From Escherichia coli (GTDB lineage Bacteria > Pseudomonadota > Gammaproteobacteria > Enterobacterales > Enterobacteriaceae): a DNA stretch of 64,000 nt. The stretch lies in the NCBI RefSeq assembly GCF_003334355.1, contig NZ_QOWP01000004.1; one strand, given 5' to 3'. The notes under the pieces are model-generated. The model had not been told where the DNA came from and did no database searches. It saw only the letters and a program-made list of their open reading frames with translations. The translations under genes were made by a program, and so were the position numbers. This document shows, piece after piece, positions 7,207-11,719 of the stretch (its first letter is position 1; each line of letters opens with the position of its first letter).

Positions 7207-7704
7207 TTATCCTGCGACGCTCGCAAAGAATTTTTTGTAATCCGTCGTTGCAAGCACTTTTTCAAGCTGTGCCACAAGCTGACGTAAGCCTTGCTCGTCC
7301 TCGTCTGTAAAGCGACCGAAGACGGTACTATCGATGTCAAGAACACCAATAATCTGATTTTTCACCACCAGCGGCAGAACAATTTCAGAATTACTCGCCG
7401 CATCACAGGCAATATGCCCGTCAAACGCGTGAACATCCTCGATACGCTGCACTTGATTGCGGGCAACCGCAGTGCCGCACACCCCGCGCCCGACGGGTAT
7501 CCGGACACAGGCAATTTTGCCCTGAAATGGTCCGAGTACCAGTGTATCGTCCTCAAGCAAATAAAAACCTGCCCAGTTTACGTCAGTGAGACGCTCGTAT
7601 AACAACGCACTGGTGTTCGCAAGCGTTGCCAGAAAACTGGTTTCTCCCGCCATCAGCGCGTTAAAGTCGCGATTTAAATCCGCGTAAAATTCTGTTTTGT
7701 TCAT
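7207..7704 (-). CDS. msrC: MsrC (YebR), free methionine-(R)-sulfoxide reductase, GAF domain
   Basis: ATG at 7704 gives 165 aa starting MNKTEFYADLNRDF; ORF track extended upstream. Confidence 0.85.
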   Translation of the reverse strand: MNKTEFYADLNRDFNALMAGETSFLATLANTSALLYERLTDVNWAGFYLLEDDTLVLGPFQGKIACVRIPVGRGVCGTAVARNQVQRIEDVHAFDGHIACDAASNSEIVLPLVVKNQIIGVLDIDSTVFGRFTDEDEQGLRQLVAQLEKVLATTDYKKFFASVAG

Positions 7705-7833
7705 TATATAATCACTTGTTTGTCTTACCTGGAACTGCCAGCCTATTAAAATAAGCATTAAATGCGTTAATGCTCAAGATCATTCCCATCATGGGTTAAG
7801 ATTAATGTTAATTCTTATTACATTTGGCACGTC

Positions 7834-9117
7834 ATGGCTCTTAACACACCACAAATTACGCCGACAAAAAAGATAACAGTGAGGGCAATCGGCGAGGAAC
7901 TGCCGCGTGGTGATTACCAACGTTGCCCGCAATGTGACATGCTGTTTAGCCTGCCCGAGATAAATTCTCATCAGAGTGCCTATTGTCCGCGCTGTCAGGC
8001 AAAAATTCGCGACGGGCGCGACTGGTCGCTAACGCGCCTGGCGGCAATGGCTTTCACCATGCTGTTGCTGATGCCGTTTGCCTGGGGCGAACCGCTGTTG
8101 CATATCTGGCTGTTAGGTATTCGTATCGACGCCAACGTCATGCAAGGCATCTGGCAAATGACCAAACAGGGCGATACGATAACGGGGGCGATGGTCTTTT
8201 TCTGCGTTATTGGTGCCCCCCTCATTCTGGTGTCCTCCATAGCATATTTATGGTTTGGTAACCGACTGGGAATGAATTTACGTCCGGTACTGCTGATGCT
8301 TGAGCGACTTAAAGAGTGGGTAATGCTGGATATCTACCTGGTCGGCATTGGCGTTGCTTCTATAAAGGTACAGGATTATGCCCATATCCAGGCGGGTGTC
8401 GGCTTGTTCTCTTTTGTGGCGTTGGTGATTTTAACGACGGTGACGTTGTCACATCTTAATGTCGAGGAGCTGTGGGAGCGATTTTATCCGCAGCGCCCCG
8501 CTACGCGTAGGGACGAGAAACTTCGTGTCTGTCTTGGGTGCCATTTTACCGGCTATCCTGATCAGCGTGGTCGCTGCCCGCGTTGCCATATCCCGCTACG
8601 CCTGCGTCGCCGTCATAGTTTGCAAAAATGCTGGGCGGCGCTGTTAGCGTCAATCGTTTTGTTGTTACCTGCCAACCTGTTGCCTATTTCTATCATTTAT
8701 CTGAACGGAGGACGGCAGGAAGATACAATTCTTTCCGGAATTATGTCGCTGGCAAGTAGCAACATTGCGGTTGCGGGAATCGTGTTTATCGCCAGTATTC
8801 TGGTACCGTTTACTAAAGTGATCGTCATGTTCACTTTACTGTTGAGCATTCATTTTAAATGCCAGCAAGGTTTACGCACACGCATTCTGTTACTGCGGAT
8901 GGTGACCTGGATTGGTCGCTGGTCGATGCTCGACCTGTTTGTCATATCTTTAACCATGTCGCTGATTAATCGCGATCAGATCCTCGCTTTTACTATGGGA
9001 CCGGCTGCGTTTTATTTTGGCGCAGCCGTAATTTTGACTATTCTTGCTGTGGAATGGCTGGACAGCCGCTTACTTTGGGATGCACATGAGTCAGGAAACG
9101 CCCGCTTCGACAACTGA
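7834..9117 (+). CDS. yebS: LetA (YebS), PqiA-family inner membrane protein
   Basis: 427-aa ORF, ATG start; two CxxC zinc-ribbon-like pairs and multi-TM repeats typical of PqiA/LetA. Confidence 0.9.
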
Positions 9118-11719
9118 AGCGCAGATTAAAAATAAACGCCGTATCTCACCTTTCTGGCTGCTGCCTTTCATCGCGCTAATGATTGCCGGTTGGCTGATTT
9201 GGGACAGTTATCAGGACCGGGGTAATACCGTCACCATCGACTTTATGTCGGCGGATGGTATTGTTCCGGGCCGTACGCCTGTTCGTTATCAGGGCGTTGA
9301 AGTCGGAACAGTGCAGGATATCAGCCTCAGCGACGATCTTCGTAAGATTGAAGTCAAGGTCAGCATCAAGTCCGATATGAAAGATGCGCTGCGCGAAGAG
9401 ACTCAGTTCTGGCTGGTGACGCCAAAAGCATCGTTGGCAGGTGTCTCCGGGCTGGACGCCCTCGTCGGTGGTAACTATATCGGCATGATGCCGGGTAAAG
9501 GTAAAGAGCAGGATCACTTTGTCGCACTCGATACCCAACCGAAATATCGGCTGGACAATGGCGATCTGATGATCCACCTGCAAGCCCCCGATCTCGGTTC
9601 GCTGAACAGCGGTTCATTGGTCTATTTCCGCAAGATCCCGGTGGGAAAAGTCTACGACTATGCCATCAATCCCAACAAGCAAGGCGTGGTGATTGATGTC
9701 CTGATCGAGCGGCGTTTTACCGACCTGGTGAAAAAAGGTAGCCGTTTCTGGAACGTTTCCGGCGTTGATGCCAACGTCAGTATCAGTGGCGCGAAGGTGA
9801 AACTGGAAAGTCTGGCGGCACTGGTTAACGGTGCGATTGCCTTCGATTCACCAGAAGAGTCGAAACCTGCCGAGGCGGAAGATACCTTTGGTCTGTATGA
9901 AGATCTGGCCCACAGCCAGCGTGGCGTAATAATAAAACTGGAACTGCCGAGTGGGGCAGGATTAACCGCCGACTCGACGCCGTTAATGTATCAGGGGCTG
10001 GAAGTCGGACAGCTGACTAAACTGGATTTAAATCCTGGTGGTAAAGTCACCGGAGAAATGACCGTTGATCCCAGCGTCGTTACGCTGTTACGGGAAAATA
10101 CCCGCATCGAATTACGCAACCCGAAATTATCCCTTAGCGATGCCAATCTCAGCGCCCTGCTGACTGGCAAAACCTTCGAGTTGGTACCCGGCGATGGCGA
10201 GCCACGCAAAGAGTTCGTTGTTGTGCCAGGCGAAAAAGCACTGCTGCATGAACCTGATGTTCTGACGCTGACCCTGACCGCACCGGAAAGTTACGGTATT
10301 GATGCGGGTCAGCCGCTCATTCTTCACGGCGTGCAGGTAGGCCAGGTTATTGATCGTAAACTCACCAGCAAAGGCGTTACCTTTACCGTCGCCATTGAGC
10401 CTCAGCATCGAGAACTGGTAAAAGGCGATAGCAAATTTGTCGTCAACAGCCGTGTCGACGTGAAGGTGGGGCTGGATGGCGTTGAGTTTCTCGGTGCCAG
10501 CGCCTCAGAATGGATTAACGGCGGGATACGTATTCTGCCGGGCGATAAAGGCGAGATGAAAGCCAGCTATCCACTGTATGCCAATCTGGAAAAAGCGCTG
10601 GAGAACAGCCTTAGCGATTTACCCACCACAACCGTGAGTTTGAGTGCAGAGACGCTGCCGGATGTGCAGGCAGGATCGGTAGTGCTGTACCGTAAATTTG
10701 AAGTTGGTGAAGTGATTACCGTGCGTCCGCGAGCTAACGCGTTTGATATCGATCTGCATATTAAGCCGGAGTATCGCAACCTTCTGACCAGCAATAGCGT
10801 GTTCTGGGCAGAAGGCGGGGCGAAAGTTCAGCTGAATGGTAGTGGTCTGACCGTACAGGCATCCCCGCTCTCCAGAGCATTAAAGGGAGCCATTAGCTTC
10901 GACAACCTCAGCGGTGCCAGCGCCAGTCAGCGTAAAGGCGATAAGCGTATTCTGTATGCTTCCGAAACAGCGGCCCGTGCGGTTGGCGGGCAGATTACGC
11001 TTCACGCTTTCGATGCCGGAAAACTGGCGGTCGGGATGCCAATTCGCTATCTCGGTATTGATATCGGGCAAATCCAGACGCTGGATCTGATTACCGCACG
11101 CAATGAAGTACAGGCAAAGGCGGTACTTTACCCGGAATATGTCCAGACCTTTGCTCGCGGTGGTACGCGCTTCTCAGTGGTCACACCGCAAATTTCGGCA
11201 GCTGGCGTTGAGCATCTTGATACTATCCTCCAGCCGTATATCAACGTCGAACCAGGCCGGGGCAATCCTCGCCGCGACTTTGAATTACAAGAGGCCACCA
11301 TTACTGATTCGCGTTACCTGGATGGCTTAAGCATTATTGTTGAAGCGCCGGAAGCCGGTTCGTTAGGTATTGGTACGCCTGTGCTGTTCCGTGGTCTGGA
11401 AGTAGGTACGGTTACCGGAATGACGCTGGGGACATTGTCAGATCGCGTGATGATTGCGATGCGCATCAGTAAACGCGATCAACACCTGGTGCGTAACAAT
11501 TCCGTCTTCTGGTTGGCATCGGGTTACAGTCTGGACTTTGGTCTGACGGGCGGCGTAGTGAAAACCGGCACCTTTAACCAGTTTATCCGTGGCGGCATCG
11601 CCTTCGCCACGCCTCCAGGTACGCCACTGGCACCGAAAGCCCAGGAAGGCAAGCACTTCCTGTTGCAGGAAAGTGAACCGAAAGAGTGGCGTGAATGGGG
11701 TACTGCGCTTCCCAAATAA
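9086..11719 (+). CDS. yebT: LetB (YebT), multi-MCE-domain periplasm-spanning lipid transport protein
   Basis: ATG at 9086 gives 877 aa starting [10 protein letters not shown]; internally repetitive MCE-like segments; overlaps yebS by 32 nt. Confidence 0.9.

Follow-up and report, generated by a model that had tools for sequence, protein, structure and literature searches.

The letA/letB junction of Escherichia coli: an out-of-frame overlap with an invariant letB start and probable independent initiation

How is a gene started when its first codons lie inside the end of the gene before it, in another reading frame? The letA (yebS) and letB (yebT) genes raise this question in a 64,000-nt stretch of Escherichia coli DNA (hereafter the window; contig NZ_QOWP01000004.1 of assembly GCF_003334355.1). 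An initial annotation of the window had described a 32-nt overlap of the two genes in different frames and placed the letB start at ATG 9086, with 9044 as an alternative. It had also taken the arrangement as a sign of translational coupling. Our results point with reasonable confidence to an ancient LetAB operon junction, at which letB is translated from ATG 9086 mainly through independent de novo initiation inside the end of letA. The features discussed are listed in Table 1.

Table 1. Features of the letA/letB junction, in window coordinates
Feature	Position	Strand	Remarks
letA (yebS) CDS	7834..9117	+	427 aa, TGA stop 9115-9117; ORF list, RefSeq annotation of the identical ATCC 8739 record
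letB (yebT) CDS	9086..11719	+	annotated ATG, 877 aa plus stop; ORF list, RefSeq
letA/letB overlap	9086..9117	+	32 nt; sequence, RefSeq
Overlap content	9086..9117	+	letB codons 1-10 and two bases of codon 11; letA codon 418 (last two bases) to 427 and stop
letB start ATG	9086..9088	+	last two bases of letA His418 CAT and G of Glu419
In-frame TTG	9044..9046	+	first start-type codon of the mechanical ORF; shown as M by ORF-lister convention
In-frame ATG (MHMSQ)	9080..9082	+	two codons 5' of 9086; overlooked in the initial annotation; probably unused
Upstream TGA closing the letB frame	9035..9037	+	16 codons 5' of 9086; 83/83 Enterobacteriaceae loci
SD-like GGGA	9077..9080	+	letA Trp415-Asp416 (UGG-GAU), 5 nt before ATG
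Near-frozen synonymous block	9034..9137	+	letA codons 401-427, letB codons 1-17; dual-coding part is 9086-9117 only
GC-rich hairpin inside letA, then U-rich stretch	9002..9028	+	codons 390-392 pair with 396-398; terminator-like match, MFE fold
5-bp hairpin UGGCU-GGAC-AGCCG	9055..9068	+	fold; within conserved leader
7-bp hairpin CGCUUCG-ACAAC-UGAAGCG	9103..9121	+	letA stop in 3' arm; begins 14 nt after letB AUG
LetB single membrane helix, residues 20-39	9143..9202	+	hydropathy maximum 2.0; TM helices in LetAB structure

Gene limits and the letB start codon

The window is 100% identical to ATCC 8739 and 99-100% identical to E. coli genomes, and RefSeq gives letA and letB the same limits in ATCC 8739, K-12 and strain N96. 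The letB frame is +1 relative to letA ((9086-7834) mod 3 = 1). At the junction letA reads ...TGG GAT GCA CAT GAG TCA GGA AAC GCC CGC TTC GAC AAC TGA, and the letB frame reads ...TTT GGG ATG CAC ATG AGT CAG.... A base-by-base comparison found A at 9112 in the ATCC 8739-type window (LetA Asn427; silent in LetB) and G in the other five E. coli. A random ATG inside 11 codons is not improbable by chance. The overlap described in the initial annotation is borne out by the sequence, by the RefSeq limits and by Santarossa et al. (Nature 2026; PMC13017536), who state that letA and letB "overlap by 32 bp". It is a genuine same-strand, out-of-frame overlap with no misannotated start, and as such already published and ordinary. 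In the surrounding 50 kb it is the sole long one; the other three same-strand overlaps are of the canonical 4 nt.

Both products belong to a solved complex. LetA scored 700.9 bits against TIGR00155 (PqiA/YebS family; cut-off 260.35) over residues 16-417. Against the PqiA equivalog NF011683 it scored 210.8, below the cut-off of 562, and it is therefore the YebS paralogue. It matches PDB 9n8w chain A, whilst LetB residues 1-877 align over their full length to the 877-aa chain B (E-value 0, 1949 bits). The complex contains one LetA and six LetB (PDB chain counts; PMC13017536). LetA 419-427 and LetB 1-13 could not be resolved by cryo-EM (PMC13017536), and the TIGR00155 match stops before the overlap-encoded tail. 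The overlap thus encodes only disordered tails of the two proteins. LetA probably continues for ten non-conserved, disordered residues past ...SRLLWD to the first chance in-frame stop.

Conservation of the start was assessed at 83 Enterobacteriaceae loci from 80 species, with letA codons counted over 78 aligned species. ATG 9086 was invariant in all 80 species (83/83 loci). His418 of letA was CAT in 78/78 species, though CAC is synonymous. Asp416, a synonymous site of the same type that serves as an internal control, was GAT in 54 and GAC in 24. More distant letA/letB junctions were fetched by homology search with a 200-aa query, which returned mostly fragments. In seven such orthologues (Serratia, Pantoea, Proteus, Plesiomonas, Aggregatibacter and two metagenomic relatives) the letB ATG kept a constant position with respect to the LetA W-(D/E/N/K) motif, and it directly followed the LetA ...SRLLW(D/E) motif in Serratia, Proteus, Plesiomonas and Pasteurellaceae too. 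The letA stop floats, giving overlaps of 14-59 nt across taxa; in 4 Enterobacteriaceae the overlap is 44 nt rather than 32 nt.

There is no plausible downstream letB start that would remove the overlap, since the next in-frame ATG is Met32, within the membrane helix, and LetB orthologue N-termini keep M-[SQ]-Q-E. ATG 9086 is real because an 877-codon ORF lies behind it, it is invariant in all orthologues examined and it gives an initiation peak in vitro (INRI-seq, below). The letB start proposed in the initial annotation therefore holds. The RefSeq and UniProt starts of LetB are correct, and the long overlap is not the product of a mis-called start.

It is very unlikely that letB starts further upstream, at ATG 9080 (MHMSQ...) or TTG 9044 (MLWNGW...), with a longer cytoplasmic N-terminus. 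These two and 9086 are the only canonical starts (ATG/GTG/TTG) 5' of the membrane helix, and both are in frame with no stop between. In one Pantoea-like genome a gene caller picked the MHM start, and ATG 9080 is kept in 53/80 species. It is lost, however, in the remaining 27, where it is ACG in 25 and ATA in 2; the losses include another E. coli and Salmonella arizonae, and ATG>ACG here is a synonymous GAT>GAC change in letA. TTG 9044 is replaced by TTT in 3/80 species (L022, L026, L027). Between 9044 and 9085, the base changes are synonymous in letA but radical when read in the letB frame (L>Q/P, W>L/S, A>D).

Neither upstream codon has a usable Shine-Dalgarno (SD) sequence. TTG 9044 showed no SD pairing (+0.6 kcal/mol). 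ATG 9080 has no SD of its own: its duplex of -3.0 kcal/mol lies at a spacing of 16, and the SD-like GGGA ends on its A. For ATG 9086 the GGGA duplex with the 16S 3' tail reaches -4.0 kcal/mol at a spacing of 4-5, the best of the three. The start was also mapped by INRI-seq, a published purified cell-free system using synthetic truncated RNA, in which the letB oligo spans window 9056-9238 with a 30-nt leader. This oligo contains 9080, yet the annotated start alone was called and Table S3 lists no alternative start on it; the peak window (+12 to +18) only narrowly excludes a 9080 start. In addition, the solved, functional complex was built from the 877-aa protein. Given their conservation, the strength of their SDs and the in vitro results, TTG 9044 and ATG 9080 were rejected as letB starts.

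The comparison of orthologues that the initial annotation had proposed as a check therefore separates the candidates, 9086 being invariant and 9080 and 9044 not. Its further point on 9044, that a start there would alter the predicted membrane anchoring, is not supported either. The 14 extra residues are non-hydrophobic (Kyte-Doolittle <0) and would merely lengthen the cytoplasmic tail ahead of an unchanged helix, whose position is the same for all three candidate starts.

Initiation at letB and the question of coupling

All distant orthologues carry GGGA or GGAA at the place of the E. coli SD-like motif. In INRI-seq the letB start gave a peak at K-12 position 1917510 in 5/5 replicates (30-69 CPM). 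The letB transcript lacks the letA start, and with it any upstream translating ribosome, but initiates at the annotated letB start. The letB oligo accounted for 59 CPM of the transcript pool; letA gave about 7 CPM from a transcript of 541 CPM. Signal per transcript was thus about 60-fold higher at the letB start than at the letA start. The letB start region is also weakly structured. Its 63-nt window (-30..+33) folds with an MFE of -8.6 kcal/mol, the mean for the operon being -15.3 +/- 4.0, which places it among the weakest 2.8% of windows, and the 81-nt fold gave z = +1.31. In vivo, the Ribo-RET peak at the letB start was 0, probably as a result of low expression. LetB, yebS and yebT were absent from the supplements of TRAINSPOTTER, a Salmonella N-terminal proteoform study and Burkhardt 2017.

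Our preferred reading is that letB is translated mainly by ribosomes binding de novo to a dedicated initiation region inside the letA 3' end. This region would combine the weak SD-like GGGA at -9 to -6 with an unusually unstructured, strongly conserved leader and with A-rich first codons. The initiation region of letA itself is very poor. Independent initiation would let LetB exceed LetA, as the 1:6 complex requires, and an embedded independent start region would be a simple rationale for making such a complex from one operon. We infer that de novo initiation is the dominant route in vivo and that the frozen synonymous sites described below reflect the needs of the letB initiation region. Against this model, the SD is weak, and an unstructured start alone should not freeze specific bases over about 100 nt, so that an additional factor may be at work there.

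The initial annotation had instead suggested translational coupling, which in obligatory form would mean that letB is translated mainly by ribosomes fresh from letA. They would either scan back 29 nt from UGA to AUG after termination or open a closed start region. The out-of-frame overlap is kept across Enterobacterales and Pasteurellaceae, the letA stop codon sits in a conserved 7-bp hairpin 14 nt past the AUG, and an SD of only -4.0 kcal/mol would also suit such a mechanism. Moreover, the evidence for letA-independent translation of letB is in vitro. That evidence nevertheless shows leader-only RNA initiating efficiently, where coupled pairs depend on upstream translation. Coupled pairs also sequester the downstream start, whereas that of letB lies in the least structured 3% of 63-nt operon windows, leaving little for upstream ribosomes to melt. 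Nor are stop and start close, as in coupled pairs: 26 nt separate the letB ATG from the letA TGA, and the distance varies among taxa as noted above.

Stoichiometry and gene arrangement point the same way. Coupled pairs yield roughly equimolar products, and a poorly translated letA, with no more than one reinitiation for each termination, cannot supply one LetA with six LetB. The paralogous pqiA-pqiB junction has no overlap, and the backbone plasmid of the deep mutational scan, pBEL2071, carries the letA and letB ORFs separated (PMC13017536). We therefore consider obligatory coupling unlikely, and the claim is not supported as originally stated. Taken together, these results suggest that letA translation is not essential for letB but leave room for facilitative coupling in vivo.

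The +1 relation of the frames would also allow a frameshift at the invariant CUU-U (9073-9076, Leu414), fusing LetA to LetB and giving one tethered chain per hexamer. CUU UGG resembles the CUU-U slip site of prfB, and Leu414 is CTT in 77/78 aligned species. The LetA C-terminus and LetB N-terminus are presumably both cytoplasmic, which would make a fusion topologically possible. However, the CUU is followed by neither a slow codon nor a stop, and no strong SD lies 3 nt before it. LetA and LetB have been purified and blotted as separate proteins (PMC13017536) and are separate chains in the solved complex. With no stimulatory elements and the proteins seen apart, the fusion was rejected and has a negligible chance of being correct. 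Independent initiation at ATG 9086 is thus retained as the best explanation.

Synonymous constraint and RNA elements around the start

Synonymous variation collapses around the junction. In letA, normalised synonymous entropy was 0.72 over codons 20-388 but 0.24 over codons 401-417 (Mann-Whitney p = 1.5e-6), and the lowest other 15-codon window of letA reached 0.53. In letB, codons 2-18 gave 0.19 and the rest of the gene never fell below 0.49. The block is the single synonymous-constraint outlier of the 1,300-codon operon, and it extends 52 nt 5' and about 20 nt 3' of the dual-coding part. Five Leu positions each keep a single codon, no two of them the same one. This frozen block of about 100 nt is a new detail of the letA/letB junction.

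Three hairpins lie in or next to the block. The first, at 9002-9028 inside the letA coding sequence, has a stem of 10 pairs, 7 of them GC, and its tail UAAUUUUGAC passes a simple terminator scan; the tail is UAAUAUUGAC in 45/73 distinct sequences. Pair 9006/9024 can form in 86% of sequences (expected, 52%), as UA, CG, GU, AU and UG. The other pairs are weak or broken, several stem pairs being broken in other species. The hairpin at 9055-9068 was 100% paired and is lost in Proteus; because it is almost invariant, its conservation says little about structure. In the hairpin at 9103-9121, 98.6% of cells were paired and all changes were compatible with pairing (G.U>A-U 13 times, U-A>U.G 3 times). 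Within the overlap, the loop of this hairpin varies most, whilst the synonymous positions 9118 and 9121, beyond the overlap, are conserved as well.

Other candidate elements in the block were rejected. A predicted long-range stem around the AUG (9032-9039/9089-9096) is broken in 45/73 distinct sequences. TTGACT at 9034 resembles part of a sigma-70 promoter but has no -10 partner, and a promoter scan of the block found none. No Rfam match was found in 7600-9400 at E <= 1. Invariant GGA motifs occur at 9051, 9060 (in a hairpin loop), 9078 (the SD) and 9093, the pattern expected of a CsrA-repressed initiation region (two or more GGA, one of them at the SD or in a hairpin loop). CsrA regulation through these motifs was nevertheless dismissed, since neither gene shows a CLIP-seq peak or a change in translation efficiency. 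In Supplementary Data 2 of Potts et al. 2017, yebT and yebS are both marked 'No' for CLIP-seq, and the yebT TE logFC is -0.12 (not significant).

Could the block and the 9002-9028 hairpin form a specific regulatory or processing element beyond a ribosome-binding site? Such an element might bind a small RNA or an RNA-binding protein, or be processed by RNase E to give letB its own, stabler mRNA. It would tune the LetB:LetA ratio and does not conflict with the reading favoured for the start codon. In its favour, the lone outlier of constraint runs past the dual-coding part, the Leu codons are each fixed differently and the four GGA motifs are invariant. An AU-rich single-stranded stretch follows a hairpin with one covarying pair, and the stop-codon hairpin shows compatible changes only. 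Published mRNA half-lives are 2.75 min for letB and 1.64 min for letA. This difference is small, however, and the obvious GGA-binding candidate, CsrA, has neither a CLIP-seq peak nor a translation effect. There is likewise no Rfam family or promoter-like site, almost no variation is left for testing structure, and the constraint relaxes in Proteus and Pasteurellaceae. An element of this kind is thus possible but has perhaps a minor share of the probability.

A more speculative form of the same proposal, and a somewhat less probable one than either obligatory coupling or a regulatory element in general, is that 9002-9137 (about 120 nt) is a dedicated RNA module setting a 6:1 ratio of LetB to LetA synthesis. 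Its parts would be the partly covarying hairpin, the near-invariant single-stranded leader and its four GGA motifs, the start codon AUG and the conserved letA-stop hairpin. The module might recruit an RNA-binding factor or small RNA, or direct an endonucleolytic cut yielding a separate letB mRNA. If so, the frozen synonymous sites would mark a regulatory element and not merely a ribosome-binding site. The native letAB junction holds an unusually constrained region of about 100 nt that is removed in refactored constructs.

Comparison with known operon junctions

The letAB (yebST) locus of E. coli K-12 (PMC13017536, RefSeq) is the same locus, with the same gene limits, 32-bp overlap, 1:6 complex and unresolved tails. 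The mode of letB initiation and the conservation of the junction, addressed here, are not discussed in that paper.

In the paralogous pqiA-pqiB-pqiC operon of E. coli, too, the gene for a PqiA-family membrane protein precedes that for a multi-MCE protein. PqiA shares with LetA the conserved W-D near the protein end, and pqiB, like letB, has its ribosome-binding site inside the end of the upstream gene. By contrast, pqiA and pqiB do not overlap. They are separated by a 4-nt gap, and a strong GAGGAG SD lies 9 nt before the pqiB ATG. A long overlap is thus confined to the Let lineage. The pqiB-pqiC junction is a canonical 4-nt ATGA overlap. Homology of the letB start to an in-frame ATG 18 nt 5' of pqiB was considered and dropped, the distances from the conserved W-D being different.

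Classical coupled pairs such as trpE-trpD and trpB-trpA have ATGA or TGATG junctions. They resemble letAB in being neighbours in one operon, in having products that join one complex and in that the second gene starts within the first or at its end. The letB start differs in lying 26 nt before the stop codon, in initiating alone in vitro and in its variable distance to the stop among taxa. The letAB products are also needed at 1:6, not 1:1.

Where a ribosome-binding site is embedded in the end of the preceding gene, it restricts the choice of synonymous codons there, a general phenomenon of which Eyre-Walker reportedly gave an example in 1996. In line with this, the last codons of letA lose synonymous variation just 5' of the letB start. 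At letAB, however, many sites are invariant in 78-80 species over about 52 nt upstream and about 20 nt past the overlap, so the frozen block exceeds what an SD and spacer alone would explain. Beyond these points the letAB junction is of a textbook operon type, with modest general interest.

The letA-letB overlap and the letB start site

The letB start lies inside the 3' end of letA in a different frame, as the initial annotation had read, and the 32-nt overlap was confirmed both by the sequence and by RefSeq gene limits that are identical in ATCC 8739, K-12 and one divergent strain. It is a known, annotated and published feature. An 801-nt junction query was 100% identical to ATCC 8739 and found at 95% identity or more in 5,425 of 5,426 complete E. 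coli genomes. Among the 51 annotated features of the surrounding 50 kb this is the sole long overlap, the other same-strand overlaps (cmoB/cmoA, yecE/yecD and znuB/znuC) each being the canonical 4 nt.

Features of the letA-letB junction in window coordinates
Feature	Position	Strand	Details
letA (yebS) ORF	7834-9117	+	427 aa; 3' end CAT GAG TCA GGA AAC GCC CGC TTC GAC AAC TGA
letB (yebT)	from ATG 9086	+	877-aa LetB; +1 frame relative to letA
letA/letB overlap	9086-9117	+	32 nt
+1 frame upstream of letB	from 9035		TGA(9035) CTA TTC TTG(9044) CTG TGG AAT GGC TGG ACA GCC GCT TAC TTT GGG ATG(9080) CAC ATG(9086) AGT CAG GAA
Predicted hairpin	9002-9028	+	GC-rich, terminator-like, inside letA; codons 390-392 against 396-398, then a U-rich stretch
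Predicted hairpin	9055-9068		invariant
Predicted hairpin	9103-9121	+	7 bp; letA stop UGA in 3' arm; starts 14 nt after letB AUG

At 9112 the window carries A (the ATCC 8739 type), which makes LetA residue 427 Asn and leaves LetB unchanged. In a base-by-base comparison, the five other E. coli sequences all had G there (Asp427). Over 9030-9125, identity to the window is 99% or more in only 96 of 5,425 genomes, which fits a minority allele. Start-site ambiguity also affects msrC (yebR), the neighbour of letA on the minus strand, whose mechanical ORF from an upstream ATG encodes 183 aa (7207-7758) and whose RefSeq product has 165 aa (7207-7704).

Start conservation was compared in junctions from 80 Enterobacteriaceae species (LetB N-terminal identity 82-100%) and three E. 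coli records. ATG 9086 was unchanged in all 83. The initial annotation overlooked the in-frame ATG 9080, which is lost in 27 of the 80 species (ACG in 25, ATA in two); another E. coli and Salmonella enterica subsp. arizonae are among those without it. In three of the 80, TTG 9044 has become TTT. Two letA codons serve as an internal control for 9086 over 9080. ATG 9080 takes its T from the third position of Asp416, a site free to vary (GAT 54, GAC 24). ATG 9086 takes its T from the third position of His418, which is CAT in 78/78 species although CAC would be silent in LetA. Substitutions at 9044-9085 are all silent in LetA, and read in the letB frame they are all radical (L>Q/P, W>L/S, T>I, A>D, M>T), so that the letB frame is not coding upstream of 9086.

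Pairing with the 16S rRNA 3' tail reached -4.0 kcal/mol for ATG 9086, properly spaced via GGGA at 9077-9080. ATG 9080, whose A doubles as the last base of that GGGA, pairs at -3.0 kcal/mol with a spacing of 16 nt, too long to be of use; for TTG 9044 the value was +0.6 kcal/mol. The codon at 9044, which the initial annotation had read as M without verifying it, is TTG. Its concern that a start there would change membrane anchoring does not hold: the 14 added residues are not hydrophobic and would leave the single LetB membrane helix (residues 20-39) unaltered. INRI-seq lists no non-annotated start on the yebT oligo, though it includes ATG 9080 (PMC9825163). With these losses, poor pairing and no INRI-seq call, both upstream starts were rejected. 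The annotated start at 9086, which also initiates in vitro, is well supported.

Translational coupling and probable independent initiation of letB

INRI-seq combines a synthetic E. coli transcriptome, a purified translation system and retapamulin, with RNAs comprising a 30-nt leader and the first 153 nt of each ORF (Hör et al. 2022, PMC9825163). The yebT RNA spans 9056-9238, without the letA start or upstream ribosomes, and shows that ATG 9086 can recruit ribosomes on its own in vitro. The yebS (letA) signal was ~7 CPM despite a transcript 9-fold more abundant in the pool (541 CPM for letA, 59 CPM for letB), making the letB start ~60-fold more active per transcript (PMC9825163). The in vivo Ribo-RET value was 0 for letA and letB alike (PMC9825163), presumably due to low expression, and LetB was absent from N-terminomics and the other published supplements searched. 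The letA start region (7804-7866, start 7834) has essentially no SD pairing (-1.5 kcal/mol); so poor a start fits a role for LetA as the minor subunit.

Coupling, which the initial annotation inferred from the overlap, is a sensible starting assumption where genes overlap. Against an obligatory form stands, besides this leader-only initiation, the weak fold of the junction. The 63-nt window at the letB AUG folds at -8.6 kcal/mol, compared with -15.3 +/- 4.0 for internal operon windows (2.8% as weak), and an 81-nt segment folds worse than its shuffled versions (z = +1.31), so letA ribosomes would find little to melt. The spacing between stop and start varies among taxa. One LetA is present per six LetB in the complex (2 LetA and 12 LetB chains in PDB 9n8w and 9n8x), a ratio that reinitiation after a poorly translated letA could not supply. 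Moreover, the two genes are separated in the plasmid on which the deep mutational scan of LetA was built. Most likely, letB is translated from its own embedded initiation region, to which passing letA ribosomes would add at most a minor, facilitative share; we infer this share, having found no in vivo experiment in the literature that separates letB initiation from their contribution.

A published genomic-SELEX table places a sigma-28 holoenzyme binding peak within yebS at genome coordinate 1914836, which converts to about window 8388, and a weak sigma-28-like TAAAG-N13-GCCCATAT lies at 8363-8387 (+) inside letA. If there were an internal promoter at ~8363-8388, letB mRNA would be raised over letA mRNA.

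Synonymous-site constraint and predicted hairpins

The one point worth passing on is how deeply, and unusually so, the sequence around the junction is constrained. Across 78 species, normalised synonymous-codon entropy was 0.72 over letA codons 20-388, 0.49 over codons 389-400, 0.24 over codons 401-417 (upstream of the ATG and not dual-coding), 0.04 in the overlap and 0.19 over letB codons 2-18. The drop at codons 401-417 was significant (Mann-Whitney p = 1.5e-6), and no other 15-codon window fell below 0.53 in letA or 0.49 in the 877-codon letB. Across letA 401-414, five Leu codons are fixed as TTG, CTT, CTG, TTA and CTT, each in 71-78 of 78 species; none of the remaining 47 is equally constrained. 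The block 9029-9108 is nearly invariant in the 80-species alignment, and across 5,425 E. coli genomes the 96-nt stretch 9030-9125 differs by no more than a few mismatches. A 33-codon antisense ORF with a TTG start (9012-9113, minus strand), probably a mere mechanical ORF, lies exactly beneath this block.

The embedded ribosome-binding site explains part of the constraint but probably not base-level invariance over ~100 nt. A sigma-70 promoter (by scan), a known RNA family and CsrA were each tested and rejected as its cause; a processing site or other binding factor is possible. The yebT mRNA has a published half-life of 2.75 min and the yebS mRNA one of 1.64 min.

Within the hairpin at 9002-9028, pair 9006/9024 (third codon positions) covaries, being paired in 86% against 52% expected among 73 distinct sequences (UA 32, CG 9, GU 8, AU 7, UG 7); its remaining pairs are weak or partly broken. 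Conservation of the 9055-9068 hairpin is uninformative because its sequence is invariant. The 9103-9121 stem is 98.6% paired with only pairing-compatible changes, variation within the overlap is greatest in its loop (9110-9114), and synonymous sites 9118 and 9121 just beyond the overlap are conserved too.

Distant junctions and the paralogous pqiA-pqiB pair

We compared seven distant junctions, from a Serratia-like genome, a Pantoea-like symbiont, Proteus mirabilis, Plesiomonas, Aggregatibacter and two metagenomic relatives. In all seven the letB ATG lies 5-6 nt past UGG-GAU, GAA, AAA or AAC, the codons of the last conserved LetA residues, (S/T)RL(L/I)W(D/E/N/K), so that it has an SD-like GGGA or GGAA ahead of it in every case. 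The position of the letA stop, in contrast, varies, giving overlaps of 32, 32, 59, 14, 38, 17 and 29 nt; in four Enterobacteriaceae the overlap is 44 nt, TGA having changed to GGA. The LetA tail beyond the letB ATG has 4-19 residues without conserved sequence in the compared junctions and, from these alignments, appears to terminate at whichever stop first arises in frame. This fits the structural data: family model TIGR00155 stops at LetA residue 417, and the cryo-EM map resolves neither LetA 419-427 nor LetB 1-13, so the dual-coding stretch encodes only two disordered cytoplasmic tails.

In several non-E. coli loci fetched for comparison (L085 1501-3831, L086 603-3801, L087, L088, L090 and L092), letB and at times letA are called in at least two pieces, most clearly in the Plautia stali symbiont, where both are broken up, in keeping with a symbiont genome in decay. 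A Mannheimia letB-like gene adjoins fur, which precedes it, without any letA upstream.

At the E. coli K-12 pqiA-pqiB junction (locus L084, 2242-2262), an in-frame ATG lies 18 nt upstream of the annotated pqiB start, inside the last pqiA codons (CATGAGGAG) and, like the letB start, in a His-Glu 'CAT GAG' context. It is the annotated start of pqiB that follows the GAGGAG SD. Unlike letA-letB, this paralogous pair has no overlap: its genes are separated by a 4-nt gap, with the strong SD within pqiA.
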